Part shown: in pieces, positions 16,678 to 58,898 of the stretch
Position numbering within the stretch: position 1 is the stretch's first letter
Layout: each line of letters starts with the position of its first letter
Origin: an uncultured Pirellulales bacterium
GTDB lineage: Bacteria > Planctomycetota > Phycisphaerae > Sedimentisphaerales > Anaerobacaceae
NCBI GenBank assembly: GCA_964570855.1
Contig: CAZMZR010000003.1
Span: 4,684 to 68,683 of the forward strand
Reading direction: 5' to 3'
DNA: 64,000 nucleotides
The notes under the pieces: model-generated
What the model was told of the DNA's origin: nothing
Database searches by the model: none
The model's input: only the letters and a program-made list of their open reading frames with translations
Position numbers and translations under genes: made by a program

Positions 16678-19600
16678 ATGAAAAAGAAAAGACTTACAAA
16701 CCTCGCTATATACTTGCTCGCACTGGTTTTCGCACCAATTATATCCGCTGATGTAACGGAACGATTTGCCTCCGACGAAATTATCGTAAAATTCCGTGAA
16801 AATGCCGCTAATATCATTGAAAAACAATTAGACAACCCGGTCGATACTATCAATATATCTCCACAGATAAGCCAGCTCAATACAAAGTACCAAATAAGGC
16901 AGATAAGCCCTCTTTTAAAAGGCTTTCGAACCAAACATCAACAGCTACAATCACTCAGTCATAAAAGAGCTGACCTTTTAACGCAGAAAGATAAACGCAT
17001 TCTCAGAAGACTACAGCGAATGCCCGCGAACGGAACAATCCCGAATCTTGAACGAATCTACAAGATAAAACTCGATTGTCCGACCGAACAATCACTCCAG
17101 GAAGCTCTTGAGGCCTATAGAAATAATCCAGAGGTCGAATATGCCGAGCTAAATTATAAAGCATCAATAGAATCCGCTCCTAATGATCCTTTATATATTA
17201 ATCAATGGTCACTGAGCAAAATAAATGCACCGGATGCATGGGATATTTACACTGGAAGCTCAAAGATAATCGTTGCAGTCTTAGACACAGGTGTAGATTA
17301 TGATCACAGAGATATAGCGGGTAATATGTGGATCAACGATGATGAATACGAAGGCATTGAGGGAATCGATGACGACGATAACGGTTACATTGACGACCTG
17401 TATGGCTATAACTTTATCTATAATACTGAAGATCCATTTGACGATCATGGTCATGGAACACACTGCGCAGGTATAATCGCCGCTAAAGGTAACAATGAAC
17501 TCGATATATCCGGAGTATGCTGGAACACCAGGATAATGGCCCTGAAAGCCTTCAACTACGATGCAGGTGGATACACACACGACTTAGTTGAAGCAATTTT
17601 TTACGCTGTAGCAAACGGAGCTGATATTATTTCCAACAGTTGGACAATCGATGATGTGCCTAACGAATTACAGTCAATCAAAGAAGTGTTTGAATATGCC
17701 TACAGCCAGGGAGTAATATCAGTTGCAGCAGCCGGTAATCAAAACACAGATTCACCAAGATATCCAGCTTATTATCAGAATGTAATTTCCGTAGCAGCAA
17801 CTAACTCACAAGACGACAGGTGGATTGATACTAATACCGGTTTAGGTTCTAATTATGGCGATTGGGTGGATATAGCAGCACCTGGAGTTAATATTTTGTC
17901 ACTAAGAGCTTCAAATACCGGAGAAGGCGTACTCTATAACCAATATGCAACCAGTTTAACTGGCACTTCTATGGCCTGTCCCCATGTTGCAGGTGCCTGT
18001 GCACTTTTACTATCCGCTAATCCAACGATGAAATATCGCGAAGTTTATAATAAACTTATTGAGACAGCCGACCCGATTTCACCGGGAATTTGCAGATCAA
18101 ATGGACGTCTTAATCTTTCCAAAATAATGCAGGCAGTAGTGCCCACTCAAGGATATATCAATTTTGATCAAGATTATTATACCCATACAAGTAAAGTGGG
18201 TTTATTGTTGTCGGACCGAGACCTTAAGGGCAATGGTAGCCATGAAGTCACCGTCACAACTCAAAAAGGGGATATAGAAAATATAGTACTATACGAAACA
18301 GAAGCTGCTTTTGGTGTATTTACCGCTAAAATTTCTATCAACACAGGATCACCCAATATAAACGATGGCATATTACAGGCATCTTCCGGTGAAATTATTA
18401 CCGCAACATATTTTGATCCCGATGAAGGTTTGGGTAATTCGACATCCACGGATATCGCCTTCATAGATTATGAAGCACCGATATTAACAAACATGCAAAT
18501 TGAAGTTCAGGCACGCCAGGCTACGATAACGCTGACAACCAATGAATCAACCAAAGCTATAATCCGTTACGGATTGGTACCTGACGATGAACAATTCACT
18601 TCGTCCGAAAACCTTACTTTGACTACGGGTCACACTTTCACGCTTCAACCTCTCAATCCTGAAACAGATTACTACTTTGTTATTGATTTGATCGATGTGG
18701 CGGGAAATGAAGTCTCAGTCGAAAATAATAACCAGTATTATTTGTTTTCAACATCTTCAGATACTATCGGTTTCCGCGTGCCGGAGGCTTATTCAACCAT
18801 TCAGTCAGCAATAAATAACGCTTCCGACGGGGATACGATATGGGTCGCCGACGGTCGCTATACCGGCACAGAAAATAAGAATATAGACTTCAAAGGAAAA
18901 GCCATCACCGTTAAAAGTGAAAACGGACCTGATAACTGTATTATTGACTGCCAAAGCCAGGGGTTCGGATTTTACTTCCGCATGGGTGAAGGACTTAACT
19001 CAGTCCTGGATGGTTTCACTATATGGAATGGAAACGTCAGTGGACGCGGCGGGGGAATTTATTGCGACCAAAGCAGCCCTACAATCATCAACTGCATTTT
19101 CTCGGACAATACAGCCGGACAATATGGTGGTGGAATGTATAACTTCAATAACAGCAATCCATTATTAATTAACTGCTTATTCGCACAAAACTCCGCAGGC
19201 ACAAATCAATCCGATTCCGGCAACGGCGGAGGAATCTGCAATCTTGCTAATAGCAATCCAACACTGATTAACTGCGAGTTCTTCAAAAATTCTGCTACTT
19301 ACCAAGGAGGTGGAATATATAATGAAGAAAACAGCAGTCCAACTATAATTAAATGTTTCTTCTACGAAAACGATTCAAGAAACGGTGGTGGTATATATAA
19401 CTTCTCTAACAGTAATCCGGTACTGACCAACTGCATATTCGTTGACAATTCTGCCAAATTCGGCGGTGCTATACAAAATGCCTCTTCAATTAACCTCGAG
19501 CCTTCGATAACCACTCTTATTAACTGCACATTATTCAGAAACAGTGCCGAAAAAATGGGCGGCGCAATTATGAACTCCTCGGGCGGCGCTTCCATACTGA

Positions 19601-20478
19601 ACAACTGCATTCTCTGGGACAACAATGACCTCGATGGTTCGGACGAATCGGCTCAAATCAATAATTCTACCGGCAGTCAAAATACAATCGTCAATTATTC
19701 CTGTATCCAGGGCTGGACCGGAAATATGCAAGGCATTGGTAACATTAATGAAGACCCGGTCTTTTTCGATGTAGATAAAGATGACTATCACTTAAAAAGT
19801 ACAGGCTGGCGATGGGATAATCTACGACAACGATGGCACTACGATGACATAACAAGCCCATGTGTTGACTCAGGTAATCCAGGCTCACCTTTGAAAGATG
19901 AATTGCCGGCTATACCTGGTGATGCCACAAATGAATGGGGAATTAACTTACGTATAAATATGGGGGCATTCGGTGGTACAGCCGAGGCAAGCATGGCCCC
20001 GCACAACTGGAACCTGCTGGGAGATTTGAATAACGACGGAAATGTCAACCTAAAGGACTTTGCGGCTCAAATCCAAACCTGGGCGGGAACTGAAAATGAG
20101 CTCCCGGGTGATTTGGATCGAAACGGTACCGTGGATAGAACAGACCTTACAATGCTGGCAGACGATTGGCTGGAATATATAAAGCCACCTTATGTGAATA
20201 TCACATATCCAACTGACGGTGGAGTTTTTGATGGACCGGCTGCTGAAGTCCTGATCGAAGTTGAAGCATGGGATACGAATGGTTCGGTAGTCAAAATGGA
20301 ATTCTTTGCCGATGGAATTAAGATAGGAAAAGACAACAACGGTTCCGACGGCTGGAGTTTCAACTGGACAGAGCATTCTGTCGGCGAATATTATCTTACC
20401 GCAAGAGCAACAGACAACGGAGGAGCAATCACAACTTCAAGCCAGATTGTAATCTGGATTATACCACTACGTGATTAA
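16678..20478 (+). CDS. secreted multidomain subtilisin-like serine protease (S8) with beta-helix repeats, dockerin-like pair and Ig-like C-terminus
   Basis: Signal peptide. I9-like propeptide. Catalytic D/H/S (LDTGVDYDH, HGHGTHCAG, GTSMACPHVAG). Fn3-like segment. PbH1-type repeats. GDLNNDGNVNLKDF and GDLDRNGTVDRTDL (dockerin-type Ca loops). Confidence 0.9.
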   Translation: MKKKRLTNLAIYLLALVFAPIISADVTERFASDEIIVKFRENAANIIEKQLDNPVDTINISPQISQLNTKYQIRQISPLLKGFRTKHQQLQSLSHKRADLLTQKDKRILRRLQRMPANGTIPNLERIYKIKLDCPTEQSLQEALEAYRNNPEVEYAELNYKASIESAPNDPLYINQWSLSKINAPDAWDIYTGSSKIIVAVLDTGVDYDHRDIAGNMWINDDEYEGIEGIDDDDNGYIDDLYGYNFIYNTEDPFDDHGHGTHCAGIIAAKGNNELDISGVCWNTRIMALKAFNYDAGGYTHDLVEAIFYAVANGADIISNSWTIDDVPNELQSIKEVFEYAYSQGVISVAAAGNQNTDSPRYPAYYQNVISVAATNSQDDRWIDTNTGLGSNYGDWVDIAAPGVNILSLRASNTGEGVLYNQYATSLTGTSMACPHVAGACALLLSANPTMKYREVYNKLIETADPISPGICRSNGRLNLSKIMQAVVPTQGYINFDQDYYTHTSKVGLLLSDRDLKGNGSHEVTVTTQKGDIENIVLYETEAAFGVFTAKISINTGSPNINDGILQASSGEIITATYFDPDEGLGNSTSTDIAFIDYEAPILTNMQIEVQARQATITLTTNESTKAIIRYGLVPDDEQFTSSENLTLTTGHTFTLQPLNPETDYYFVIDLIDVAGNEVSVENNNQYYLFSTSSDTIGFRVPEAYSTIQSAINNASDGDTIWVADGRYTGTENKNIDFKGKAITVKSENGPDNCIIDCQSQGFGFYFRMGEGLNSVLDGFTIWNGNVSGRGGGIYCDQSSPTIINCIFSDNTAGQYGGGMYNFNNSNPLLINCLFAQNSAGTNQSDSGNGGGICNLANSNPTLINCEFFKNSATYQGGGIYNEENSSPTIIKCFFYENDSRNGGGIYNFSNSNPVLTNCIFVDNSAKFGGAIQNASSINLEPSITTLINCTLFRNSAEKMGGAIMNSSGGASILNNCILWDNNDLDGSDESAQINNSTGSQNTIVNYSCIQGWTGNMQGIGNINEDPVFFDVDKDDYHLKSTGWRWDNLRQRWHYDDITSPCVDSGNPGSPLKDELPAIPGDATNEWGINLRINMGAFGGTAEASMAPHNWNLLGDLNNDGNVNLKDFAAQIQTWAGTENELPGDLDRNGTVDRTDLTMLADDWLEYIKPPYVNITYPTDGGVFDGPAAEVLIEVEAWDTNGSVVKMEFFADGIKIGKDNNGSDGWSFNWTEHSVGEYYLTARATDNGGAITTSSQIVIWIIPLRD
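19048..19626 (+). repeat. about 7 tandem parallel-beta-helix (PbH1-like) repeat units inside the protease CDS
   Basis: Recurring GGGIYN-x-x-NS-x-P-x-(L/I)INC-x-F-x-x-NSA units of about 22-30 aa, read in the translation. Confidence 0.6.
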
Positions 20479-27377: not shown

Positions 27378-27406
27378 ATTGCGATTAGATTTGGCTGTAA
27401 ATTATG

Positions 27407-27438
27407 GACGAGGCATTGCCTCGTCTTTGTTGTCTTTG
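27407..27438 (+). promoter_or_regulatory. terminator-like hairpin plus U-tract inside the gpmI 5' leader (possible attenuator)
   Basis: GACGAGG (27407-27413) / CCTCGTC (27419-27425) with a 5-nt loop, followed by TTTGTTGTCTTTG. Ends 15 nt before the ATG at 27454. Confidence 0.4.
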
Positions 27439-27453
27439 CTCGAAAGGTCATTT

Positions 27454-29028
27454 ATGACAAAAAAGAAAGCTGCTTTGAAAGACAAACCTTGTATGCTGAT
27501 TATACGCGACGGCTGGGGCTATAATCCAAATCCACAAGAAGATGAATATAACGCAATCAAATGTGCAAATACCCCGGTTGACGATATGCTTATGGCAGAA
27601 TATCCGAACTGCCTAATTCACACAAGCGGTGAAGATGTAGGTCTACCAAACGGAACAATGGGCAACAGTGAAGTCGGACACCAGAATATTGGGGCAGGAA
27701 GAATCGTCCCACAGGAATCAGTCAGGATTAGCAAAACTATCCGGGACGGGTCATTTTTTGAAAATAAAGAATTTCTCAATCTAATCAAGTTCATCAAAAA
27801 TAGCAACGGCAAAATGCATGTCATGGGTTTGTGCAGCGATATAGGGGTACATTCGCTGCTGGACCACCTCTACGGCCTACTCGAATTTGCACAAAGAAAC
27901 GGCTTAAAGAATGTCTATATTCACGCATTTACCGACGGCCGAGATTCACCGCCGGACAGCGGTGCCGGTTATATAGCCGATATCGAGAAGAAAGCCAAAA
28001 AAATGGGCATCGGCACGATTGCATCCGTTATGGGCAGATTCTATGCGATGGACCGTGACAGCCGGTGGGACCGCGTCCAAAAAGCTTACGAATGTATGAG
28101 GACCGGCAAAGGCCTGAAAGCTCCAAGCGCTTCAGAAGCAGTTTCCCAGAGTTACGAAAAAGAGGTAACCGATGAATTCATCGAGCCGACAAGCATCATC
28201 AATTCAGATAATGAGCCGGTAGCCACGGTCAATGACGGGGACGGTGTTGTGTTTTTCAATTTTCGCGGCGACAGACCCCGGGAAATTACGCGAGCATTTG
28301 TTTCGCCGGACTTCAAAGAGTTTCCCAGGACTACCAGGCCCGACATTTATTACGTCTGCTTGACCGAATACGATGCAACCATCCCTACACCGGTGGCATT
28401 TCCCAAGCCACCGAAAATGAAAAATATCCTCGGAGCTTACTGGGGATCTTTGGGCCTAAAGCAATTTCGTTGTGCCGAGACGGAAAAATACGCACATGTG
28501 ACATTCTTCTTCAATGATTACACGGAGAAACCGTTCCCCGGCGAAGACAGGCAAATCGTTCCCTCACCACGGGTGCGAACATACGATTTAAAGCCGGAAA
28601 TGAGTGCATACGAGGTTTGCGAAGTCGTATTGGAAAGATTAAATTCGCAAAAATACGATGTGATAGTGGTCAACTTTGCCAATCCGGACATGGTTGGGCA
28701 CACCGGCATATTGTCTGCAGCGGTCAAGGCCGCTGAAGCGGTCGATGAATGCGTCGGCAAAATTCTTGATAAAGTTAAGGACTTGGGTGGTTCGGCAATT
28801 ATCACCGCCGATCACGGCAATTTCGAGAAAATGGCAGACGGCAGCCCTGAAAATCCTCACACCGCACATACTATCGGCGATGTACCATTGATCATATTCG
28901 ACAAACGCCATAAGAACAGCAAACTCCGACAAGACGGCAGATTGGCCGACATTGGCCCTACACTGCTGGATATGATGAGCCTGCCGCAACCGGAAGAAAT
29001 GACCGGAAAAAGCCTGATAGAAAATTAG
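27454..29028 (+). CDS. gpmI: 2,3-bisphosphoglycerate-independent phosphoglycerate mutase
   Basis: LIIRDGWG, catalytic-Ser block GNSEVGHQNIGAGR, ITADHGN. ATG 27454 with RBS AAAGG is preferred over the TTG at 27379. Confidence 0.9.
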   Translation: MTKKKAALKDKPCMLIIRDGWGYNPNPQEDEYNAIKCANTPVDDMLMAEYPNCLIHTSGEDVGLPNGTMGNSEVGHQNIGAGRIVPQESVRISKTIRDGSFFENKEFLNLIKFIKNSNGKMHVMGLCSDIGVHSLLDHLYGLLEFAQRNGLKNVYIHAFTDGRDSPPDSGAGYIADIEKKAKKMGIGTIASVMGRFYAMDRDSRWDRVQKAYECMRTGKGLKAPSASEAVSQSYEKEVTDEFIEPTSIINSDNEPVATVNDGDGVVFFNFRGDRPREITRAFVSPDFKEFPRTTRPDIYYVCLTEYDATIPTPVAFPKPPKMKNILGAYWGSLGLKQFRCAETEKYAHVTFFFNDYTEKPFPGEDRQIVPSPRVRTYDLKPEMSAYEVCEVVLERLNSQKYDVIVVNFANPDMVGHTGILSAAVKAAEAVDECVGKILDKVKDLGGSAIITADHGNFEKMADGSPENPHTAHTIGDVPLIIFDKRHKNSKLRQDGRLADIGPTLLDMMSLPQPEEMTGKSLIEN

Positions 29029-45913: not shown

Positions 45914-46858
45914 TTATCCAATCGCTCTGATAATTCTTGTTCTAATGCCCGCCGGTTTGGCACCTTCAGGTACGACACAATTAACTGCATGAGGTATAAC
46001 ATTTATTTGGACCGGCAGGAATGGGCCGGGATCACCGTCAATTTCAGTTCGTATGAGTTTAACCTCAGAACTAATTGTAATATTTTTGCCCTGACGATAA
46101 ATAACATCCCGGCGGTTGGCGTGGTGTTTCAATATTGTCATGATCGAATGTTTAACCAGATGGAGTCGTGATGCACATTTGTAGATACATATATCCAACA
46201 GGCCGTCGCCGTAATCGGCATAATGCAAAATTTGCAGACCCACCGCGTATCTTGAAATGTTTCCTATAAAAACAAGCCCCGGACCGTCATAAATTTCTTC
46301 CCCGTCAACCTGAACTTTCATCGGGGCAAACCTATAGCCCCAGAATGTTCGCCAAATCGGCCAGAAGTAATCAAAGTGATTAATATGCCCGTCCCGCTGT
46401 TCGCTGACCCGCTTTACCACCTCGCCATCAAATCCGAAGCCGGCCACAGAGGTAAAGCATTTTCCATTTACACTTCCGAGATCCAGAGGCCGAATGTATC
46501 CGGCTTCAAATATTTTGATCATAGTTTTTAATTTTTCGTCGAAGCCCAATTCATTAGCCAACAGATTCTCCGTTCCGGAGGGCATTATCAATAACGGTTT
46601 GTCACTGCCTTCCAGGCCGTGTGCCACTTCTCTGACGGTACCGTCACCACCGGCTGCTATTACTAATGCGCAGTTGTAATCAACTGCTGCATCGGTAGCC
46701 AGTTCACATGCATGCGCCAGTGATCTGGTAAGGCTGCACCTTACTTCATACCCCCTTTTAACGAGGTATTTCTCAAATCGGTGCCCCATCATTTTAGTAC
46801 AGGTGGCACCGGATTTGGGATTTACTATATATGCAATGTAACCATCATCAGGCTTCAT
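45914..46858 (-). CDS. diacylglycerol/lipid kinase family protein (YegS/BmrU-like)
   Basis: AAGGDGTVREV catalytic-domain motif. About 310 aa. Confidence 0.8.
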   Translation of the reverse strand: MKPDDGYIAYIVNPKSGATCTKMMGHRFEKYLVKRGYEVRCSLTRSLAHACELATDAAVDYNCALVIAAGGDGTVREVAHGLEGSDKPLLIMPSGTENLLANELGFDEKLKTMIKIFEAGYIRPLDLGSVNGKCFTSVAGFGFDGEVVKRVSEQRDGHINHFDYFWPIWRTFWGYRFAPMKVQVDGEEIYDGPGLVFIGNISRYAVGLQILHYADYGDGLLDICIYKCASRLHLVKHSIMTILKHHANRRDVIYRQGKNITISSEVKLIRTEIDGDPGPFLPVQINVIPHAVNCVVPEGAKPAGIRTRIIRAIG

Positions 46859-46896: not shown

Positions 46897-47448
46897 TTAT
46901 ATTCCTGTTTTTTCCTTCTTAATTCGAAGAAGCTGCTCGGTAATCATGGAAGCATAACTCTTTGGGATATGTGGCAGAGCTTCCAGTCCCAGGTTTTTTT
47001 GAACATGGATTATTTTTTCGTCGTCCGGCCCTTCTATTTCCACAAAATCTCCAAGCACTTCCAACCTGTCCAAAGCAACTTCGCACCCACCAAGCCGCCA
47101 TAGACGGCGCTTTTTCTCAACTGTTAACTTTCCTTCGTATCCCAACGCCGAGAGAAGCTTTTGTGTCGATTCTGAGTCATCAACTTCTATTTCTATTTCC
47201 TGTCTCTTTTTGAAATTGCTTTTCTCTTTGGCGCCTTTATATGTCAAAATAAACTTCGTTTTCTCTCCAACAACCTGCCGGCGTAAACGAAGGCATCGGT
47301 CAGTATTGCTTAAGTTCCCGCTGGAATCATCAAAATGAATATCCATCTGCAATTGCTCAGCTACAAATTCGGCACCAAGCTGATGCAGCTTATCTTCAAT
47401 CTCTTGTAACGAATCAACTTTTAGTTTTGCTTCTATTTCAGTAAACAT
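46897..47448 (-). CDS. CYTH-domain protein (class IV adenylate cyclase / triphosphate tunnel metalloenzyme)
   Basis: N-terminal EIEAK (ExExK signature). Length and alternating basic/acidic strands are typical of CyaB/CYTH. Confidence 0.75.
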   Translation of the reverse strand: MFTEIEAKLKVDSLQEIEDKLHQLGAEFVAEQLQMDIHFDDSSGNLSNTDRCLRLRRQVVGEKTKFILTYKGAKEKSNFKKRQEIEIEVDDSESTQKLLSALGYEGKLTVEKKRRLWRLGGCEVALDRLEVLGDFVEIEGPDDEKIIHVQKNLGLEALPHIPKSYASMITEQLLRIKKEKTGI

Positions 47449-47471: not shown

Positions 47472-48848
47472 TCAATTTTCTTTATTGAGTTTCCGGACGG
47501 CATCAATAAAACCAACCGGATTAACAACCGCCCCTGCGTCCGTCTGGACGGCGGTTTTAAGCCACAGATCAACAATCGTCTTGGGATCGATATCCGGCTT
47601 AACCTGGTAAGCCAAGGCCGCCAACCCCGCCATGTAAGGAGCCGCACAGCTCATTCCCCCTTCCGTATCGTAAGTATAAATTTCCGGGCCGTGATGACTT
47701 GCAGTTGCCTTATTACTTGCAGGTACTAAAAGAACATCGTTTGGTGTACTATATTTTCCCCGTTTATAACTTGATGGATTATCAGGATCCGTTCCCGAAA
47801 TAAGTTTAAGTGTACCATATCTAAGCCATTGCCCGCTGCATGTCACAACCAGGATTCCGTTTTGTTCTGCCTTTATTAAAGTTTCCTTCCAAAGTTCATA
47901 ATTCTTCTGTTGTAAAAATGTACCTGTAGATATACTGACAACCACTATCTTCTCTGAAGCACCGGCTTCTTTGTTCATCTTTATTATTTTATCAATAATA
48001 TTACAATATATCTTATTATCCGGCATTGCAGTCATACGCATTGCAAAATAGTAAAGCGAAGCTTTGGGAGCTACTCCGCAATTTTTACCAACTGCAATAC
48101 TGGCAAGAGGAGCGCCGTGAATTGCAGGCGACTTATCTAATAAATGCATCTCTTCATATAATACTAATTGGTTTTTATACTCTATGTGGTCCTTTAATAA
48201 AGGCTGATCAAGTATTGCAATACCGATTCCCCTGCCATCAATTCCCTGTTTATGCAAACTGCGAATGCCAAGCCCCGGATTCTTGCCTTCATCAAGGATA
48301 CGAGCCGGATTGAAACCATCAGGCAGCTTGTCAGAATCTGGCCATTTGGTACTGCTGTCAAAGGGCATTTCCGCTAACAGTTCTGCATAATTTCTCAAAT
48401 CAAGTTTCTCCAACGATACACCGGCAAATCCCCAGAAGGGATCGAACTTATCAAGGTCCCCTTCGTTCCGAAGGACGATCTGTCGTTCCTGGCCGATATC
48501 GATCCCCTTACGTCCGGCGTTTATCCAAAGCAGGGTAAATGGTGTTGAGAATTCCCTCATTCTGCCAAATCTGGCGCTTATTCCGGGATAGCTGATATCG
48601 AGGATTTCCATGCCGCCATCGTTCTTCTTCGTTTCCTTCGAGGCAGTTCCGAGTAGTGCCTTGAGTTCCTCCGGTGTTGAAAGTTTATAGGCCAGCTTGC
48701 CTTCCGTCGCTGCATGGCGAACAATCTCTGCCAGGCTCGATTTTGTTTCGGTTTCTGCAAAGACGGCTATCTCCAGTAGTGACAACAAAAGTCCAAACGC
48801 GAATATTGTCACCAATGGTCTTCGTTTGAATGTGCTCATACCAAACAC
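47472..48848 (-). CDS. secreted S8-like serine peptidase
   Basis: Signal peptide. Putative triad IAILDQ (D), AIHGAP (H), GGMSCAAPYMAG (S). Confidence 0.65.
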   Translation of the reverse strand: MFGMSTFKRRPLVTIFAFGLLLSLLEIAVFAETETKSSLAEIVRHAATEGKLAYKLSTPEELKALLGTASKETKKNDGGMEILDISYPGISARFGRMREFSTPFTLLWINAGRKGIDIGQERQIVLRNEGDLDKFDPFWGFAGVSLEKLDLRNYAELLAEMPFDSSTKWPDSDKLPDGFNPARILDEGKNPGLGIRSLHKQGIDGRGIGIAILDQPLLKDHIEYKNQLVLYEEMHLLDKSPAIHGAPLASIAVGKNCGVAPKASLYYFAMRMTAMPDNKIYCNIIDKIIKMNKEAGASEKIVVVSISTGTFLQQKNYELWKETLIKAEQNGILVVTCSGQWLRYGTLKLISGTDPDNPSSYKRGKYSTPNDVLLVPASNKATASHHGPEIYTYDTEGGMSCAAPYMAGLAALAYQVKPDIDPKTIVDLWLKTAVQTDAGAVVNPVGFIDAVRKLNKEN

Positions 48849-51638: not shown

Positions 51639-53240
51639 TTAACGCTCCCACATTCCGTCGGGTCGTACATAGAGCACGCCGGTATCCCGGTAGAAATTCA
51701 GACTTGCAATAGTGAAATCCACCAAAGCTTCTGTAGCAGCGTTCTGAGCATCAATCAGGTTATTTTGAGCATTGAGCACCCGGCGACTACTCGCTCGGCC
51801 GTATTCGAGCAGCGTAAGGGTGTTATTATAACGTTGACTGGCCAATTCATTAGCTTCGGTCTGTACCTTATAACGATTCGCCGCTTCGGTAAGGTCACGA
51901 TAAGCGTTGCGAACTTCCAGTTGAACTATGTCTGTGGCCAGTTCATATTCCCGTTCCCGCCGGTTTAGCGTTATCAAAGCTTTTCGATAAACACTCTGTT
52001 CAGGCACGCGATCCAACGGCAGGTCAAGCTCCAACCCAAGACTATAATCTTTACTGTTCCAATCCAAACTCTGGCGATCAGCTTGTTTCGATGATGCGGC
52101 ACCGGCAGAACCGGTTAAATTTAATTCCGCTCGAAGACTGTCGGCGGCAACATAAACTTTACGTCGGGCATCGACGATAGCATCAGCAGTGTTGACCAGA
52201 TCCAACCGCCTGAGTAATGCCGTTTCAACAGCTTCGTCATCGGAGAAATCCGGTATGGCCATTTTTAATTTTCTTAAAGAACCGAGGATATTCGTATCTA
52301 ACTTTAACTGAGCTGTGGTTGGTAAACTCAATGTTATCTTAATTTCATCGAGGGCTTGTTTATATTGCTTTTCAGCCTGAAGATAAGTGTCGAAAGCTCC
52401 AAGCTTTTCCTGGCGGACTCTTTCCAGCTCCAACTGAGGGACACGACCGGCATTAGCTAATTTATCGACCTTCTCAACGAGCAAATCCATAGTTTCACAA
52501 TTTCGCCGGGCGTTTTCCATTGCATCCCACAGTTGCAAAACACTGTAATACTGACTAATCACCGAAACAACAAACCTCTGGCGAAAACGATTAAAAGACC
52601 GTACCTGATACAATGTGTCACGTTCGGCCTGTGTGAGATTCTCCAGGACAACTTCACGTTCGCTGCCGCGAAGTAAAGGCTGCGTAATTGCAGCACTTAA
52701 AATTGAAGTCAATCCACCACGCATATTACCGGTGAGTACATCAGCCCATGCAAGGGCAACTTTTGTACTGATAGCGGTCCCCCGGGCCAGCAATTGGTTA
52801 AAACCGAAATTCGCTTCAATCCCTACCACTTCATCATTACGGTCCGCCGTGTATCCGCTGGTCACTACACCAAAATACTGTCGCTCGAACTGATGACGAG
52901 TCAGTCTAAGATCCAGGGCTTTAATGTAGAGATCTTCCTTCTGTGCCTGATATTCACGATTGTAAGCAGTCGCCAAAGCCACCGCCTGCGGCAGGGTAAG
53001 AACACCGGAATCAGGAATTGTTTTTGTGACTTGAATATCGCCGATTGACGGTTTGGTATCACTTACTTTGTAGTTTACTCTGGCACCAAAATCATCCCGC
53101 CATTTTTGGTCGATAATTTTATAGACTTGTTCGTCGGCTTGCTCTTTATAGTTGTGCTGCGCACATCCGGTCAAACCGCATAAAACCGCCGAGCCGAATA
53201 TAATCAAACCGACGAGTTCTCTGGTATAATGCCTGCACAT
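51639..53240 (-). CDS. TolC-family outer-membrane efflux lipoprotein
   Basis: Lipobox LTGC at the end of the signal peptide. Two repeats of the long helical/beta OEP architecture. 13 nt after the HlyD-like gene. Confidence 0.8.
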   Translation of the reverse strand: MCRHYTRELVGLIIFGSAVLCGLTGCAQHNYKEQADEQVYKIIDQKWRDDFGARVNYKVSDTKPSIGDIQVTKTIPDSGVLTLPQAVALATAYNREYQAQKEDLYIKALDLRLTRHQFERQYFGVVTSGYTADRNDEVVGIEANFGFNQLLARGTAISTKVALAWADVLTGNMRGGLTSILSAAITQPLLRGSEREVVLENLTQAERDTLYQVRSFNRFRQRFVVSVISQYYSVLQLWDAMENARRNCETMDLLVEKVDKLANAGRVPQLELERVRQEKLGAFDTYLQAEKQYKQALDEIKITLSLPTTAQLKLDTNILGSLRKLKMAIPDFSDDEAVETALLRRLDLVNTADAIVDARRKVYVAADSLRAELNLTGSAGAASSKQADRQSLDWNSKDYSLGLELDLPLDRVPEQSVYRKALITLNRREREYELATDIVQLEVRNAYRDLTEAANRYKVQTEANELASQRYNNTLTLLEYGRASSRRVLNAQNNLIDAQNAATEALVDFTIASLNFYRDTGVLYVRPDGMWER

Positions 53241-53253
53241 GATCTATCTTCAA

Positions 53254-54423
53254 CTATAGCCTTCGTATTCCGACCGTCTCACCTGTAACCAGCCCCATTT
53301 CAGGCGGAGCTTTGATCAGAAACGGCCGACCCCATTGAGGAAAATTCGGATTTCGCCAGAACCTTACCGGCAACTGTTCCACGATTGGTCCAACATACGT
53401 TATATACGAACGCGCAATCCTTGCCGGCTCACTGCTCTTTATAATCTCAACCTCCATCCCCATGCTAATCCGGCTCACCTGTTCTTCATTTGCATAGGCT
53501 ATAATTTCGGTAGGTCTGTCTTCAGTTATCATCAGAATCGGTTCACCTGCTAAAACGGCTTCCGAAGTTCCGTGCATGATTTGACTGACAACTCCGTCAA
53601 ACGGCGCCTTTAATTCCACAGCCTCCCGCAGGTCCAATACCTCAATCTGCTGTAATACTTCGTCCATCCGACGCTCCTGGACCTTTATAGCCTTACGGAT
53701 TACACCCAGAGTACCTTCGACCGAGGGATGATACGGCTGGAACTTGACATATTCGTCACGTCGATGTTGAGCTTGTTCTAACGCAGAATTCGCCTGCGCC
53801 AATAGAATCTCGTTTTCTTTTATTTTCGTTGAAAGAGCGTCGTATTGAGTCTGTGTTTTCTGAAGCTCATAAGGCGCAACAGCCTGTTGGCTGACAAGTT
53901 CCTCCGATATTTTCACTTCCAAAGCCAGGTCATTCAAAGTGATTCGGTCAGTTTCAATCAGCGCTCTCAACCTGAGAACATCAAGCCTTGCATTCTCGAC
54001 ATCGACCGAGAATCTTCTGCTGTCAATAATACGGTTTGTTTCCCGCTGGGTTTTATCTACGGTGAGGTTGTCCTCGGTAGGAACTAATTGCGCGGTGAGA
54101 TGCTCAATCTCTGCTAAAACAGTAGCAAGCTGCGCCTGTAATTGGCTTCGCGGCTGCTCATTATCGAGCATGGTATTGACCACCGCTACTGTTTGTCCCT
54201 GTTTTACATTATCAAACAATCGGACAGGAACACTAACAAGGCGTGCCGGGCAATTTGTTGCGATTTGTTGTCCCTGACCCTGTGCTATTCCAATGACTTC
54301 GAATCGTTGCGAACGACGCGAAAAAAGCCCCACAACACACAGCACAGCACCCAACCAAACCACGACCGGAAGTATGTGATGGCGCATACGAAACGGATAA
54401 CTTTTAAGATCTACCCTTTTCAT
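53254..54423 (-). CDS. HlyD-family periplasmic adaptor (membrane fusion protein)
   Basis: N-terminal TM anchor (ILPVVVWLGAVLCVVGLF). Lipoyl-like halves flank a long coiled coil. C-terminal beta-barrel region. Confidence 0.8.
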   Translation of the reverse strand: MKRVDLKSYPFRMRHHILPVVVWLGAVLCVVGLFSRRSQRFEVIGIAQGQGQQIATNCPARLVSVPVRLFDNVKQGQTVAVVNTMLDNEQPRSQLQAQLATVLAEIEHLTAQLVPTEDNLTVDKTQRETNRIIDSRRFSVDVENARLDVLRLRALIETDRITLNDLALEVKISEELVSQQAVAPYELQKTQTQYDALSTKIKENEILLAQANSALEQAQHRRDEYVKFQPYHPSVEGTLGVIRKAIKVQERRMDEVLQQIEVLDLREAVELKAPFDGVVSQIMHGTSEAVLAGEPILMITEDRPTEIIAYANEEQVSRISMGMEVEIIKSSEPARIARSYITYVGPIVEQLPVRFWRNPNFPQWGRPFLIKAPPEMGLVTGETVGIRRL

Positions 54424-54430
54424 ACGCTAC

Positions 54431-55129
54431 TTAAACCTCCAGCAACTGTTCCTGCATCATCAGGCTGATATTTTCGAGTCCCTCAACCTTTTGCAGTTCC
54501 GAGAGCAACTGCTGATTCTTCGTTGCATCTCGAATCATCAATTGATAGGCATACTCAACATCGTTCGTTCCATAACCGGTGCCCTGTGCCGATATGAGTG
54601 TAAAACTTCCACAGAAACGCCTGAGAATAGTAGGAATCGGGCTCTCAGGACCGATATGGGCTTTGGAGACAAAACGCAGAAAACCGTTATGCGGCTGATG
54701 TGTTCCGAAGCCAACCAGATACAGATATAATATTATTAAACTCAGAATAACAGTTCCAACAACGGCAACTGCGTACCGCTGAGAACCTGATGCCATACCA
54801 ATGACAAGCGAACAAAAAATGAAGGCTATGTCTCTCGTATCTTTAATAATATTGCGGAAACGTATAATCGCCAGAGCGCCCATCAATCCAACAGCCGTGA
54901 TGATACTTGTACCGATAACAGCCATGACCATTGCTACCACAACGGTTATTACAATCAATGACTGTACAAAAGACCTCGAATAGGACAGGCCGCTATGTGT
55001 GAAGTAATAGACCCAGGCCAGTACCTGACCGAGAACAAATGCCAGCAACAGTGACAAAAGAACCGCTTCAGGTGTAAAAAGTCCTCCGGCTGAAGGAGTA
55101 CCTTCTAATATTTCCCAAATCCTATCCAT
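54431..55129 (-). CDS. DUF4956-type multi-pass membrane protein
   Basis: Four or five TM segments with the conserved core GLMGALAIIRFRNIIKDTRDIAFIF. Soluble C-terminal part of about 90 aa. Confidence 0.7.
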   Translation of the reverse strand: MDRIWEILEGTPSAGGLFTPEAVLLSLLLAFVLGQVLAWVYYFTHSGLSYSRSFVQSLIVITVVVAMVMAVIGTSIITAVGLMGALAIIRFRNIIKDTRDIAFIFCSLVIGMASGSQRYAVAVVGTVILSLIILYLYLVGFGTHQPHNGFLRFVSKAHIGPESPIPTILRRFCGSFTLISAQGTGYGTNDVEYAYQLMIRDATKNQQLLSELQKVEGLENISLMMQEQLLEV

Positions 55130-55135
55130 GATTTA

Positions 55136-55948
55136 TCACCCATCTATCCGAGGTGCACAAAATCCTAATAAACACGAGTTCTGAATTGATGAAGCATACT
55201 TTGAAATCGATCTCTGTTGTAAGTTAAAATATTTGACCATTTGACTGAGCCAAATCGGGTAGTGTTCGGTAAATTTTATTTCCAATATAACTCCACCAGT
55301 CGTAAAGGGATTTCTCTGCCAGCCCCGGCCGTCAAATCTGACCTGTGGCAAATCAGTGACACTATAAGCAAGCTCATAGTCAAATGTTATTCTCACTCTA
55401 TTGTGAGAAGTATCCTCGTAAGCACGTCGTAAGTAACGAATAAGAACAACTGGCCTGGCTCTAATACTGTTCATATATAACTGGAACTGACCGATTGTCT
55501 CGGTGTCGGCAGTATAATTCTGCGGTGGCAGGGGCAGCCCTGAAAGCAATGTCGGTACATCACTTTCCATAACACGTGCCCGACTTTTAATAATAATGGT
55601 ATTCATACGGCGTTTAATTTCAAGATAGCGAGGGTATTCCGGTTCGTCGGTATAGCCGCGAATCCGTAATTTAAAGCGGTTCTTATGACCTCGCAGGCTT
55701 TCTTTACAAAGCCGTAATTCGTTTGAATCCAAATAAAGACTCACTATTGGATAAGCACCGCTTCGCTGCAGTTTACTATACCGGTCCATTTGTATGTAAG
55801 GTTTAATAAACTGGATTATCGCCTCAGTTTCTGATTCGCGAATATGATATTTCATCTCATGACGGCACCTGAGGGTCTGATCTGGCAGCTCGACTAATTT
55901 CCGAGAAATTCCGGAATCACTCCTGAGATGATTGCTTTTTTCATGCAT
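55136..55948 (-). CDS. VTC-domain (polyphosphate-polymerase-type, CYTH-like tunnel) protein
   Basis: Strand motifs RHEMKY, YPIVSLYLD, FKLRIRGY, YLEIKRR, YLRRAYE, RVRITFD, ILEIKF, SISKY, typical of bacterial VTC-domain proteins. Confidence 0.75.
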   Translation of the reverse strand: MHEKSNHLRSDSGISRKLVELPDQTLRCRHEMKYHIRESETEAIIQFIKPYIQMDRYSKLQRSGAYPIVSLYLDSNELRLCKESLRGHKNRFKLRIRGYTDEPEYPRYLEIKRRMNTIIIKSRARVMESDVPTLLSGLPLPPQNYTADTETIGQFQLYMNSIRARPVVLIRYLRRAYEDTSHNRVRITFDYELAYSVTDLPQVRFDGRGWQRNPFTTGGVILEIKFTEHYPIWLSQMVKYFNLQQRSISKYASSIQNSCLLGFCAPRIDG

Positions 55949-56388
55949 GAAAAATTATTCTACTGACTCACTCTAAAAATAAAAAATCCCCGGTCATAAT
56001 ATCAAATAGTATCCCTGGTACTGTAAATAATTCACCCTGCCTATATTGTTAACTTATACCCTAAGCAACTAAATACTGAAGGCATACCCCATCCAATAGA
56101 AGTTGAAAACTGGAGCTATCGTTCATCCAATTTACTTCTTTTACGATCAGGCCCAATAAACAATCCTTTATAATTACCTATTTTAGCACTATTTTAACAT
56201 ATTCACAACAGATAAGTCAATACTATTTCAGTTCTTGTAATGCGTTTTTAGTCCGTATTTAACGCTTTTTTACTTGACCAGACAGAATGGTTTCGATTAG
56301 ATTACTGGGTTCTTTTAAGAAAATATGAATATTACACTAAAAGCGGTTTTTTATTTATTTATGGTCAACAATATCCGGATACGCCTTT

Positions 56389-57711
56389 ATGGATGAAAGA
56401 ATTGTAAAAATCGGGCTTGTCGGTTTTGGAACTATCGGCAGCGGTGTTGCCAAGCTGATAAGCAAAGATGCAGATTCGATAGCCGCCAGAACCGGCTTTC
56501 GGCTGGAATTGGCCTGTGTTGTTGACATTGACACAACATTGGAACGTCCTATAAAACTGCCGGAAGGCATACTTACAAACGATTTGAATGAATTGCTCGA
56601 TGATAACACTATTGAAATAGGCGTGGAAACGATAGGTGGAACAAATGTAGCAAAACAGGTTCAAATAAAAATGTTGGAGGCCGGAAAAGACGTAGTTACG
56701 GCCAATAAAGCCTTATTGGCTGAAAATGGCAATGAACTTTACAGAATTGCCCGACAAAACGGGAGATGCATAGCCTTTGAAGCGAGTTGTGCAGGTGGAA
56801 TACCGATTATCTCGGCAATACGGACCGGATTGACTGCAAATAATATATCTGCAATGTATGGAATCGTCAACGGGACATGCAATTATATTCTCTCGAATAT
56901 GACTTCAAAAAACGAAAGATTCGACCAGGCATTAATTCAGGCACAGGAAAAAGGTTATGCCGAACCGGATCCAACACTGGATATTACCGGTATCGACAGC
57001 GCGCATAAACTCACTATCCTCGCTTCCATTGCATTTGGTTACGAAATTATGCTCGAAGACATTTTCGTCGAGGGCATCGAGAAAATCTCCAAGGATGATG
57101 TCCGTTACGGTGTTGAAATGGGCTATTGTCTTAAATTACTGGCGATCGGCCAAAAAGATGAACAAAACAGAGTCTCGCTTCGGGTGCATCCTTCATTTAT
57201 CGCCATAGACAATCCACTTTCCAGGGTCGAAGGCCCATTCAATGCCATAAGCATATTCGGCAGTTCTGTCGGACAGGTCATGTTCTACGGTCGAGGAGCA
57301 GGAATGATGCCGACTGCAAGTGCAATTGTAGCGGATATCATCGATGTCGCTCTTGGAAATTCCGCCACTACTTTTAGCCATTTGAATCTGCAATCAAGAA
57401 GCGAAGAAACATTATTAATAGATAAAATCGACAATCTCGTGAGCAGGTTTTACATTCGAATAATGTGCAAGGACCAGCCGGGCGTTATAGCTCAATGGAG
57501 CAAAATCCTGGCAGAGCACAAGATAAGTATATCCGGTGCATTACAGCATGAAGGCATTGGTCCCGATAACACCGTCCCGGTAGTAATCATTACCCACCCA
57601 ACCCTGCAGAAGAACGTTACCGCCGCACTGGACGATTTGGAGAAACTCGCCGACATCGGCGGAAAACCGGTCTGTATAAGAATTGTGGATATTCCAGAGG
57701 ATAAGGATTAG
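56389..57711 (+). CDS. hom: homoserine dehydrogenase
   Basis: IGLVGFGTIGSGV NAD-binding site, catalytic domain, C-terminal ACT domain. Confidence 0.9.
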   Translation: MDERIVKIGLVGFGTIGSGVAKLISKDADSIAARTGFRLELACVVDIDTTLERPIKLPEGILTNDLNELLDDNTIEIGVETIGGTNVAKQVQIKMLEAGKDVVTANKALLAENGNELYRIARQNGRCIAFEASCAGGIPIISAIRTGLTANNISAMYGIVNGTCNYILSNMTSKNERFDQALIQAQEKGYAEPDPTLDITGIDSAHKLTILASIAFGYEIMLEDIFVEGIEKISKDDVRYGVEMGYCLKLLAIGQKDEQNRVSLRVHPSFIAIDNPLSRVEGPFNAISIFGSSVGQVMFYGRGAGMMPTASAIVADIIDVALGNSATTFSHLNLQSRSEETLLIDKIDNLVSRFYIRIMCKDQPGVIAQWSKILAEHKISISGALQHEGIGPDNTVPVVIITHPTLQKNVTAALDDLEKLADIGGKPVCIRIVDIPEDKD

Positions 57712-58898
57712 TGACTAAATACGTTATTATAATACCTGACGGTGCAGCAGATAATCCGCTTGAGCAATTCGACGGAAAGACAGCCTTTGAAGCCGCAGAA
57801 ATACCCAATATCGACAAAATAAGTTCAATGGGCAGACAAGGTCTTGTCCGAACAATTCCTGAAGGCATGGAAGCGGGCAGCGACGTCGCTCAAATGAGCT
57901 TGTTGGGCTACGATCCCCGTCGATATTATACTGGTCGGGCACCGATCGAAGCAGCCGCCCGAAATATCAAGCTATCACTTGGTGACTGGGTTTTTAGGTG
58001 CAATCTGGTAACTATAGCCGACGGCAAAATGGCTGACCATAGCGCAGGACATATCTCAACTGCAGAGGGCAGCAAACTAATAAACGAAATGGACAGTCAG
58101 CTTGGTAACGAGCAAATGCGATTTCATACCGGAGTTAGCTATCGGCACTTATTAGTTTTCAAAAAGACCGATTTTGATGTGAAGACATACCCGCCACACG
58201 ACCATATAGGCACAGCAATAGAGAGGATATTACCTCGCGGCAAAGGCTCTGATCTGCTCATTGATCTAATGGCCCGTTCACAGCAACTCTTCGCCAATCA
58301 TGATATTAACAGAGTCAGAAAAGATCTGGGAGAAAATCAGGTTAGCTCTATCTGGCTTTGGGGGCATGGCAAACAGGCTCAGTTAGAAAGTTTTCGTAAA
58401 CGTTTCGGGATCAAAGGCGCCGCAATTACCGGGGTCGATCTTGCAAAAGGCCTGGCAATACTTATTGGCTTCGACCTGATCAACGTTCCAGGCGCCACTG
58501 GTTATATCGATACAGATTATCAGGGCAAAGGGAAAGCCGCAATAAAAGCGATTGAACAATATGATATCGTCTTCGTCCATATTGAAGCGCCTGATGAAGC
58601 TTCCCACAACGGCAATGCTGAAATGAAGAAAAAAGCTATAGAACAAATCGATAAACATATTGTCGGCCCTGTGCTCGAAGCACTTCAAAAATACCAGAGC
58701 TGGCGAATACTGGTAATGCCTGATCACCCTACACCCGTTAATAATTGTGCTCACTCGGCAGAGCCGGTACCATTTGCGATGGCAGGTGATAATATAAGCG
58801 GAATTCTAAATACTACTTTCAGTGAGACCAACGCCGCAAAATCAGGATTCAAGATAGAAAATGGTTTTGAGTTAATGGAGTATTTCCTGAAAAGCTAA
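57711..58898 (+). CDS. cofactor-independent phosphoglycerate mutase (ApgM)-like metalloenzyme; candidate non-canonical homoserine kinase
   Basis: IIIPDGAAD, HIEAPDEASH, MPDHPTP (alkaline-phosphatase-superfamily metal ligands). The GTG shares a G with the hom TAG stop. Confidence 0.75.
   Translation: MTKYVIIIPDGAADNPLEQFDGKTAFEAAEIPNIDKISSMGRQGLVRTIPEGMEAGSDVAQMSLLGYDPRRYYTGRAPIEAAARNIKLSLGDWVFRCNLVTIADGKMADHSAGHISTAEGSKLINEMDSQLGNEQMRFHTGVSYRHLLVFKKTDFDVKTYPPHDHIGTAIERILPRGKGSDLLIDLMARSQQLFANHDINRVRKDLGENQVSSIWLWGHGKQAQLESFRKRFGIKGAAITGVDLAKGLAILIGFDLINVPGATGYIDTDYQGKGKAAIKAIEQYDIVFVHIEAPDEASHNGNAEMKKKAIEQIDKHIVGPVLEALQKYQSWRILVMPDHPTPVNNCAHSAEPVPFAMAGDNISGILNTTFSETNAAKSGFKIENGFELMEYFLKS

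Follow-up and report, generated by a model that had tools for sequence, protein, structure and literature searches.

The stretch of DNA analysed here (64,000 nucleotides of contig CAZMZR010000003.1, assembly GCA_964570855.1, from an uncultured planctomycete of the Sedimentisphaerales; referred to below as the window) carries four consecutive minus-strand genes that combine a VTC-type enzyme and a DUF4956 membrane protein with the periplasmic and outer-membrane parts of a tripartite exporter. In the order of transcription, the open reading frames (ORFs) encode a cytoplasmic Vtc4-type triphosphate-tunnel enzyme of 270 amino acids, a putative polyphosphate polymerase (55136-55948; Pfam VTC); an inner-membrane protein of 232 amino acids, a putative translocation subunit (54431-55129; Pfam DUF4956); an EmrA/HlyD-type periplasmic adaptor, or membrane fusion protein, of 389 amino acids with a transmembrane (TM) anchor (53254-54423; Pfam HlyD_3 and HlyD_D23); and a TolC/OprM-family outer-membrane factor, a lipoprotein of 533 amino acids (51639-53240; Pfam OEP). 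The intergenic gaps are only 6, 7 and 13 nt long. Downstream, leuS starts 222 nt past the last gene; upstream, the divergent hom gene is 440 nt away. A first-pass annotation, made from the letters of the sequence, had described these four co-directional genes with their spacing, coordinates and leuS/hom flanks, and the ORF analysis reproduced all of this; the peptide motifs cited in that annotation were all found in the translations, and a Pfam hidden Markov model (HMM) search placed the VTC, DUF4956, HlyD and OEP/TolC assignments above their curated thresholds. The nearest homologues are 61-100% identical and come from metagenome-assembled genomes labelled Sedimentisphaerales, Phycisphaerae or Planctomycetota.

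The best promoter-like site of the region is of the sigma-70 type and lies upstream of the VTC gene (TTGACT, an 18-nt spacer with a TG, and TAAAAT; 56191-56220, minus strand; 10 of 12 positions matched). In an alignment of the upstream regions of 35 species both hexamers are at least 80% conserved, and the leader of about 235 nt that follows is poorly conserved. Because the gaps are short and this conserved promoter precedes the VTC gene, the four genes are one operon. No internal terminator above shuffled expectation was found in it. A riboswitch or other leader element in the 440-nt upstream region was considered and rejected, as there was no Rfam match at E values up to 1 and only the promoter hexamers are conserved in the 35 species.

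The first protein of the operon matches Pfam VTC (PF09359) with an E value of 1.3e-34 (120 bits, cutoff 23) over model positions 2-232 of 235, and the structures of yeast Vtc4 (3g3q and 8i6v) are found with an E value of 1.5e-16 by a profile built from 66 diverse homologues from bacteria. Neither the VTC protein nor its membrane partner has a match to SPX or DUF202 domains; the VTC protein consists of the tunnel domain only. NCBIfam contains no model for either of the two proteins. The residue map to Vtc4 was anchored on K200, and the alignment then reproduces the published numbering of R264, R266, E426 and K458. According to this map, K33, R95, R97, K112, K121, Y172, R174, R186, E223, K225, S249 and K250 of the window protein are the counterparts of Vtc4 K200, R264, R266, K281, K294, Y359, R361, R373, E426, K428, S457 and K458, respectively. 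R95, R97, K112, K121, Y172, R174, R186, E223, K225 and K250 are invariant among the 66 homologues, K33 is conserved in at least 90% of them, and S249 is aligned with Vtc4 S457. Thus, every catalytic residue of Vtc4 has a conserved counterpart, and the loss of tunnel Lys, Arg and Glu residues that the first-pass annotation had considered has not occurred.

The residues around the active site also bear on the type of reaction. In hydrolytic tunnel enzymes, a patch of acidic residues (E-x-E-x-K plus E-x-E) holds a second metal, which activates water, whereas the corresponding positions of Vtc4p are basic and guide the chain out; furthermore, Vtc4 K458 is catalytic in polymerisation, the equivalent lysine being dispensable in hydrolysis (PMC4641920). 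The window protein reads R29-H-E31-M-K33 and E223-I-K225, i.e. two of the three glutamates of metal site 2 are replaced by basic residues (R29 and K225, matching Vtc4 R196 and K428), and K121 matches Vtc4 K294. The third of these glutamates, E31, is kept, is nearly invariant in the bacterial proteins and is replaced by T198 in Vtc4. A second member of the tunnel superfamily, a CYTH protein, is encoded four genes downstream of the operon (46897-47448, minus strand; Pfam E value 1.7e-24). In contrast to the VTC protein, it starts with MFTEIEAK and thus displays the full EIEAK of a canonical hydrolase signature. With basic residues in place of two site-2 glutamates, as in Vtc4, and in contrast to the canonical CYTH hydrolase of the same window, the VTC protein is, by its residues, probably of the polymerase type, E31 being the one departure, and polymerase activity would be expected of it.

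Alternatively, the tunnel enzyme could hydrolyse triphosphate or convert nucleotides and in this way energise or gate DUF4956, with DUF4956, adaptor and TolC exporting some other cargo (a cation, a small anion or a modified sugar). Most tunnel metalloenzymes are indeed hydrolases or cyclases, and E31 of the acidic patch is retained in the bacterial proteins. Besides, the DUF4956 relatives MgtC and YhiD are tied to ion and acid stress and not to polymers, the Gram-positive relatives are located in exopolysaccharide loci, and structural likeness alone failed to predict polymerase activity for AtTTM3 (PMC4641920). However, the basic R29 and K225, the presence of K250 at the position of Vtc4 K458 (needed for polymerisation and not for hydrolysis) and the nearby canonical E-x-E-x-K hydrolase, which marks VTC as a distinct type, all speak for a polymerase, and a tunnel enzyme that energises a transporter would be without known precedent. 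We therefore regard this alternative as improbable.

The second protein of the operon is recognized by Pfam DUF4956 (E value 5.4e-13; 49.5 bits, cutoff 30.6). By the Pfam gathering score it does not belong to the MgtC/SapB/YhiD family (20 bits with the MgtC model, below the cutoff of 31.4). Comparison of profiles with hhalign, however, aligned it with E. coli YhiD, a member of the MgtC family, with a probability of 95% and an E value of 2.6e-8, the aligned region comprising the final TM helices and the C-terminal domain. Relatives of the protein are annotated as 'YhiD' in IMG, and a streptococcal DUF4956 homologue has been described as an MgtC-type TM domain joined to an ACT domain (PMC12345266). 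It is thus supported at the profile level that DUF4956 is a distant homologue of MgtC/YhiD. A search of PDB sequences with the DUF4956 profile revealed no solved relative and returned only noise (protoglobin, E value 0.3).

DUF4956 is the best conserved of the four proteins, with 42-78% identity in distant cassettes, compared with ~35% for VTC and ~28% for the adaptor. Its invariant positions include W39, Y41, T44 and H45 in TM1, the turn S49-Y-S51, and the stretch G81-L-x-G-A-L-x-x-I-R90-F-R92-x3-K96-D97-x-R99-D100, which contains a basic loop. This loop (RFRNxxKDxRD) is specific to the DUF4956 family and is lacking in YhiD according to the hhalign alignment. Hydropathy and charge predict about five TM helices with the N-terminus outside, so that the basic loop and the C-terminal domain of 90 residues would be cytoplasmic. 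We infer that DUF4956 may be the conduit of the system, because it is obligatorily paired with VTC, is placed between enzyme and adaptor, and carries the family-specific basic residues on the side that would face the enzyme. The C-terminus of the VTC protein (encoded at 55136-55185) ends with SCLLGFCAP, and this C-x4-C-A-P motif is conserved in the clade of the window and in several distant clusters; the cytoplasmic domain of DUF4956 has an invariant cysteine as well (C173, in an RFC motif). Together, these cysteines might bind a metal or bring the two proteins into contact.

The adaptor matches Pfam HlyD_3 (E value 3.8e-10; 40.9 bits, cutoff 22.2) and HlyD_D23. Its AlphaFold2 model (pLDDT 75.6) contains a TM helix (residues 14-35), a split lipoyl domain, a beta-barrel and an alpha-hairpin of ~170 residues (92-178 and 184-265), so the TM anchor and the long helical hairpin that had been read from the sequence are both seen in the model; a membrane-proximal domain is absent. 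In a Foldseek search with this model the best match was EmrA (4tko, E value 5e-19), followed by MacA in MacAB-TolC, EmrAB-TolC and HlyD. Judged by the model, the adaptor is of the EmrA/HlyD type, and an adaptor of this class, without the membrane-proximal domain, fits an inner-membrane partner that lacks large periplasmic domains, such as DUF4956. The TM anchor itself is conserved (W23 is invariant in 12 distant sequences), which suggests specific packing within the membrane. The last protein of the operon matches Pfam OEP with two repeats (E value 8.1e-21; 75 bits, cutoff 22); TIGR01844 (TolC) matches with an E value of 8e-15, under its own cutoff. The lipobox L-T-G-C noted earlier was confirmed at residues 22-25.

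We compared the gene neighbourhood in three sets of genomes. A scan of GTDB species genomes with a tight VTC alignment, which captures only the clade of the window itself, found a VTC relative in 461 genomes; in the best 80 of them (58-84% identity), VTC-DUF4956-adaptor is present at every locus with a long enough contig. In close relatives the whole block is syntenic (ask-apgM-hom, followed by VTC-DUF4956-adaptor-OEP-leuS-CYTH-DAGK). The hom gene is missing upstream in about half of the 80 loci, leuS is displaced or inverted in several, and one sub-clade possesses a three-gene cassette without OEP, flanked by hisS and a secretin gene or by a sulfatase gene. The second set consisted of nine distant VTC homologues (33-45% identity) from separate clusters at 50% identity. 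All nine loci have VTC, then DUF4956, then a HlyD/BSH-type protein of 368-393 amino acids, among otherwise unrelated neighbours; OEP comes next in four of the nine, and giant CotH and/or LTD proteins are encoded alongside in five.

The third set was an unranked metagenome sample, collected by matching a degenerate nucleotide pattern of the invariant motif in DUF4956. Its first 120 loci were classified with HMMs for the components; counts refer to loci with enough flanking sequence to judge. Among the 38 loci with a high DUF4956 score, the adaptor is present in 22/22, VTC in 25/25 and OEP in 11/17. In the intermediate group (17 loci) the adaptor is found in 5/6, VTC in 9/11 and OEP, by component HMM, in 0/4, and the order of genes is rearranged in some of them: DUF4956-adaptor-VTC in L101 and L142, DUF4956-adaptor-(weak OEP)-VTC in L150 and CotH-DUF4956-adaptor in L118. 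The low-scoring group (65 loci) has VTC in 39/41, the adaptor in 0/36 and OEP in 0/23.

An accidental or simply inherited neighbourhood, which the synteny of the hom-leuS block in close relatives might suggest, can be rejected, as the triad occurs elsewhere with unrelated flanks and in rearranged orders. A linkage that survives changes of the flanks, shuffling of gene order and divergence down to ~28% adaptor identity is what marks genes that work as a unit, and from these comparisons VTC, DUF4956 and the adaptor are the conserved core of the system. The synteny thus extends well beyond this genome. The first-pass annotation had placed the TolC-like factor on a par with the other three proteins; here the triad is conserved, but the TolC-like factor is not obligatory, about a quarter of the cassettes having no adjacent OEP gene.

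The OEP gene adjoins the adaptor gene in 75 of 101 assessable cassettes. The motif P-[YF]-E-L-[QE]-K at the tip of the hairpin (P-Y-E-L-Q-K in the window) is present in 60 of these 75 adaptors versus 1 of the 26 without adjacent OEP (counts that ignore kinship), and most of the other 15 OEP-adjacent adaptors have near-variants of it. Such covariation is the pattern expected if the tip docks on a cognate outer-membrane factor, as far as counts that are not phylogenetically independent can be read in this way. The same data bear on another explanation, in which the periplasm would be the bacterial equivalent of the vacuole or acidocalcisome, a store filled with polyphosphate by VTC-DUF4956, the adaptor being a sheath or scaffold and OEP an optional vent or an unrelated addition. 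Indeed, the invariant core is the triad without OEP, 26/101 cassettes have no OEP gene at hand, the hairpin tips of the OEP-less adaptors differ, and several OEP-less lineages have a DUF3616-like beta-propeller next to the adaptor or fused to its periplasmic end. Moreover, eukaryotic VTC fills a storage compartment (PMC9911596). However, the OEP-less adaptors retain the full hairpin of ~170 residues, the part that docks on TolC in every adaptor characterised so far, and the gene for an outer-membrane factor often lies apart from those of its partners, as tolC does in E. coli. In the clade of the window, furthermore, the OEP gene is tightly coupled to the adaptor gene (13 nt) and the tip motif is conserved alongside. 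A periplasmic deposit therefore appears unlikely to us, although less so than the hydrolase alternative discussed above.

No ABC, RND or MFS gene is part of the operon, and a scan of the ten largest remaining ORFs in the window gave only housekeeping or surface proteins. The absence of a conventional pump, already noted in the first pass, also held in the relatives: none of more than 100 related cassettes has a transporter gene inside it. In a cassette from Planctomycetales (L088) an RND operon is present, but it is separate, self-contained and located on the other strand.

A pump encoded elsewhere is part of a further explanation, in which DUF4956 is an MgtC-like regulator of phosphate or ATP homeostasis, VTC makes cytoplasmic polyphosphate, adaptor and TolC serve that distant pump, and the genes are linked by co-regulation only. 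DUF4956 is homologous to the MgtC/YhiD family, and a PnpS/PhoB-like two-component system is encoded close to one of the distant cassettes; MgtC affects the F1Fo ATPase and PhoR, according to work cited in PMC12345266. Nevertheless, the adaptor gene stays with DUF4956 through changes of flanks, rearrangements and divergence to ~28% adaptor identity, and a transporter gene is never adjacent. Besides, the TM anchor of the adaptor is conserved (invariant W23), as expected with a specific membrane partner, and the two-component context varies between loci. We consider co-regulation of this kind very improbable. The cassette in question (L091, order CotH-VTC-DUF4956-adaptor) has the two-component system just upstream (L091:1027-3485, plus strand), the kinase scoring 401 bits with NCBIfam PnpS (cutoff 400) and the regulator being PhoB-like. 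The corresponding system of L085 is Cop/Rpp-like, and a link to the phosphate regulon through upstream two-component systems was dropped because of this inconsistency.

Other neighbours of the cassettes point to an extracytoplasmic role of the product. CotH or LTD proteins, often longer than 800 amino acids, flank the adaptor-type cassettes L087, L089, L091, L092, L093, L118 and L200. No CotH gene is present in the window operon or among the large ORFs of the window. In the low-scoring DUF4956 group the next gene encodes CotH in four of four loci tested (E values below 1e-56), and loci of this group are located in exopolysaccharide clusters with GT2-PilZ, chitin-synthase-like GT2, AlgX/DHHW and SLH proteins. 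The first-pass annotation had named CotH-type kinases, rather than HlyD/TolC, as the usual context of VTC/DUF4956 pairs; the CotH context is real, but it is not an alternative, since CotH co-occurs with adaptor-type cassettes in several lineages. The presence of VTC-DUF4956 beside secreted CotH kinases, both in sister cassettes and in Gram-positive bacteria, suggests an extracytoplasmic phosphoryl or polyanion function of an exported polymer.

In 13 loci, a DUF3616-like (SdiA-regulated-like) beta-propeller also accompanies the VTC-DUF4956-adaptor cassette. L118 (305-2335, minus strand) and L150 (2149-4107, minus strand) have it fused to the adaptor, at the periplasmic C-terminus of the latter, and a separate gene encodes it in L046, L047, L056, L062, L068, L072, L082, L093, L136, L161 and L177. 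This protein may be an extracytoplasmic processing or binding partner of the product. A cassette from Anaerohalosphaeraceae (L087) comes from the same taxonomic order as the window, but its VTC protein is only ~40% identical and a giant CotH protein is encoded after the OEP gene. This indicates that paralogous VTC-DUF4956-adaptor-OEP systems exist within Sedimentisphaerales, possibly several per genome.

Taken together, the operon is at present the strongest candidate for machinery that both synthesises and exports polyphosphate, and we put the chance that it encodes a synthesis-coupled, envelope-spanning polyphosphate secretion system at about even. The first-pass annotation had proposed that VTC plus DUF4956 takes the place of the pump, and the analysis supports this reading in part. 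In this system, the cytoplasmic VTC protein would, like Vtc4, add the gamma-phosphate of ATP to a growing polyphosphate chain in its basic tunnel. The tunnel exit would dock on the cytoplasmic face of an MgtC-like DUF4956 oligomer, where the loop with its four basic residues and the C-terminal domain would take up the chain. The chain would then cross the inner membrane through DUF4956, driven by polymerisation, and with such a driving force an ABC, RND or MFS engine would not be needed. The EmrA-type adaptor, with its TM helix beside DUF4956, would form the periplasmic tube, and its hairpin tips would open the TolC-like lipoprotein, from which the polymer would emerge at the cell surface or in the medium. 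Coupling of synthesis to membrane transit is known from the eukaryotic VTC complex (PMC9911596, PMC4641920). We infer the polymerase activity, conduction by DUF4956, the physical contacts between the proteins, polyphosphate as the cargo and its exit via adaptor and TolC.

Several observations weigh against this proposal. E31 is a hydrolase-type residue that Vtc4 lacks, and therefore the chemistry may differ from that of Vtc4. The DUF4956 relatives MgtC and YhiD are not known as channels, and the channel of eukaryotic VTC is built from DUF202-type TM domains, to which DUF4956 bears no relation; the single-sequence structure model of DUF4956 has a pLDDT of 50 and is unusable for the fold. An adjacent OEP gene is missing in the 26 cassettes mentioned above, and the VTC-DUF4956 pairs of gut and Gram-positive bacteria lack the adaptor altogether (0/36). 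The synteny evidence is all comparative, and the clades sampled are largely Planctomycetota. Finally, we found no biochemical assay of any bacterial VTC-domain or DUF4956 protein in open-access papers and bioRxiv.

Both tripartite pumps and eukaryotic VTC have components and principles in common with the system, which belongs fully to neither. With the eukaryotic VTC complex, the vacuolar polymerase-translocase (Vtc4/Vtc3 or Vtc2/Vtc1), it shares the homologous tunnel domain with all catalytic residues, the genetic tie of a cytoplasmic enzyme to a small multi-pass membrane protein and, as proposed here, transit driven by polymerisation (PMC9911596). It differs in that SPX is lacking, enzyme and TM domain are separate proteins, MgtC-like DUF4956 takes the place of the DUF202-type three-helix Vtc1 fold in the membrane, and E31 stands where Vtc4 has T198; the eukaryotic complex, in turn, has no counterpart to the periplasmic adaptor and outer-membrane duct. 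By its lack of Vtc1-type (DUF202) TM domains and of SPX, the window system falls outside that complex.

EmrAB-TolC, MacAB-TolC and HlyBD-TolC share with the window operon the adaptor fold (lipoyl domain, long hairpin, beta-barrel and N-terminal TM anchor), a TolC-family outer-membrane factor and the operon organisation, and EmrA likewise has no membrane-proximal domain. The operon thus has the adaptor and the TolC-family factor of classical tripartite systems but no ABC, RND, MFS or PET transporter; the MFS, ABC or RND engine is absent from >100 cassettes, and a 232-amino-acid MgtC-like protein and a soluble tunnel enzyme are found instead. MgtC/SapB/YhiD proteins are homologous to DUF4956 in the TM core and C-terminal domain, the invariant basic loop being found only in DUF4956, and to our knowledge MgtC proteins are not encoded beside VTC or adaptor genes. 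The proposal also resembles synthase-dependent secretion of exopolysaccharides such as alginate (Alg8/Alg44-AlgK-AlgE) and cellulose (BcsA/B-BcsC), in which translocation is tied to polymer synthesis at the inner membrane; such systems, too, have an exit of their own in the outer membrane and, in the periplasm, a partner (Alg44) with a domain that resembles an adaptor. These systems rely, however, on a membrane glycosyltransferase and a beta-barrel porin with a TPR scaffold, as opposed to the soluble tunnel enzyme, the TolC-type duct and the inorganic polymer proposed for the window.

The VTC-DUF4956 pair itself is shared with the CotH-VTC-DUF4956 module of Gram-positive and gut bacteria (in Pel and other exopolysaccharide loci, and in NELoc-2 of C. 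perfringens), which accounts for 65/120 loci of the unranked sample. This module has neither adaptor (0/36) nor OEP, and the window cassette, conversely, has no CotH. CotH, VTC ('polyphosphate polymerase') and DUF4956 have been reported as an uncharacterised accessory set in exopolysaccharide loci (bioRxiv 10.1101/768473; PMC12345266; PMC2879425), and deletion of the DUF4956 and CotH genes in S. intermedius lowers Pel-dependent aggregation (PMC12345266). Among open-access papers and bioRxiv, none was found that connects either VTC or DUF4956 to TolC or to a membrane fusion protein.

Further genes of the window lie around the operon. The CYTH gene is followed by a DAGK/NAD-kinase-like gene (45914-46858, minus strand), and the order leuS-CYTH-DAGK is conserved in many Sedimentisphaerales loci. 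Between leuS and CYTH, an S8 subtilase is encoded (47472-48848, minus strand) that is also found in some related genomes, for example in L007, L013, L019, L033 and L034, but not in L001 and L002; this patchy occurrence among relatives marks it as a variable insertion in a syntenic block. The window also contains two metalloenzymes of the cofactor-independent phosphoglycerate-mutase type (27379-29028 and 57711-58898, both plus strand), one a bacterial iPGM and the other of the ApgM type, encoded in the hom-apgM-ask operon, which runs divergently from the VTC genes. A secreted S8 protease of 1266 amino acids with Chlamydia-PMP repeats, a disaggregatase-related domain, dockerin and Big_7 (16678-20478, plus strand) is unrelated to the VTC operon.

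Bacterial polyphosphate synthesis is credited to PPK1 and PPK2, and there are reports of surface or secreted bacterial polyphosphate; the operon bears on how bacteria place this polymer outside the cytoplasm. Extracellular polyphosphate is described, for instance, by Rijal et al. 2020 (as cited in PMC12345266). A working bacterial polymerase of the Vtc4 type would represent a third route of synthesis and suggest a bacterial origin or counterpart of the logic of eukaryotic VTC, and a polymer synthase, rather than a transporter, could then supply adaptor/TolC ducts. In the wider and more tentative version of the proposal, which we hold to be less likely than not, the operon would be the first dedicated bacterial machine for polyphosphate secretion and would give adaptor/TolC systems an inner-membrane engine of a new class, and the same core in Gram-positive bacteria and sister cassettes would supply polyphosphate outside the cell, where secreted CotH kinases and LTD proteins would have it as phosphoryl donor or polyanion partner. 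If so, the long unexplained CotH-VTC-DUF4956 linkage in exopolysaccharide and virulence loci would be accounted for, and three large families (bacterial VTC, DUF4956 and the linked secreted CotH proteins of pathogens and gut bacteria) would gain a testable function. As the operon is present in hundreds of species of sediment Planctomycetota, it may matter for the cycling of phosphorus and metals in sediments.

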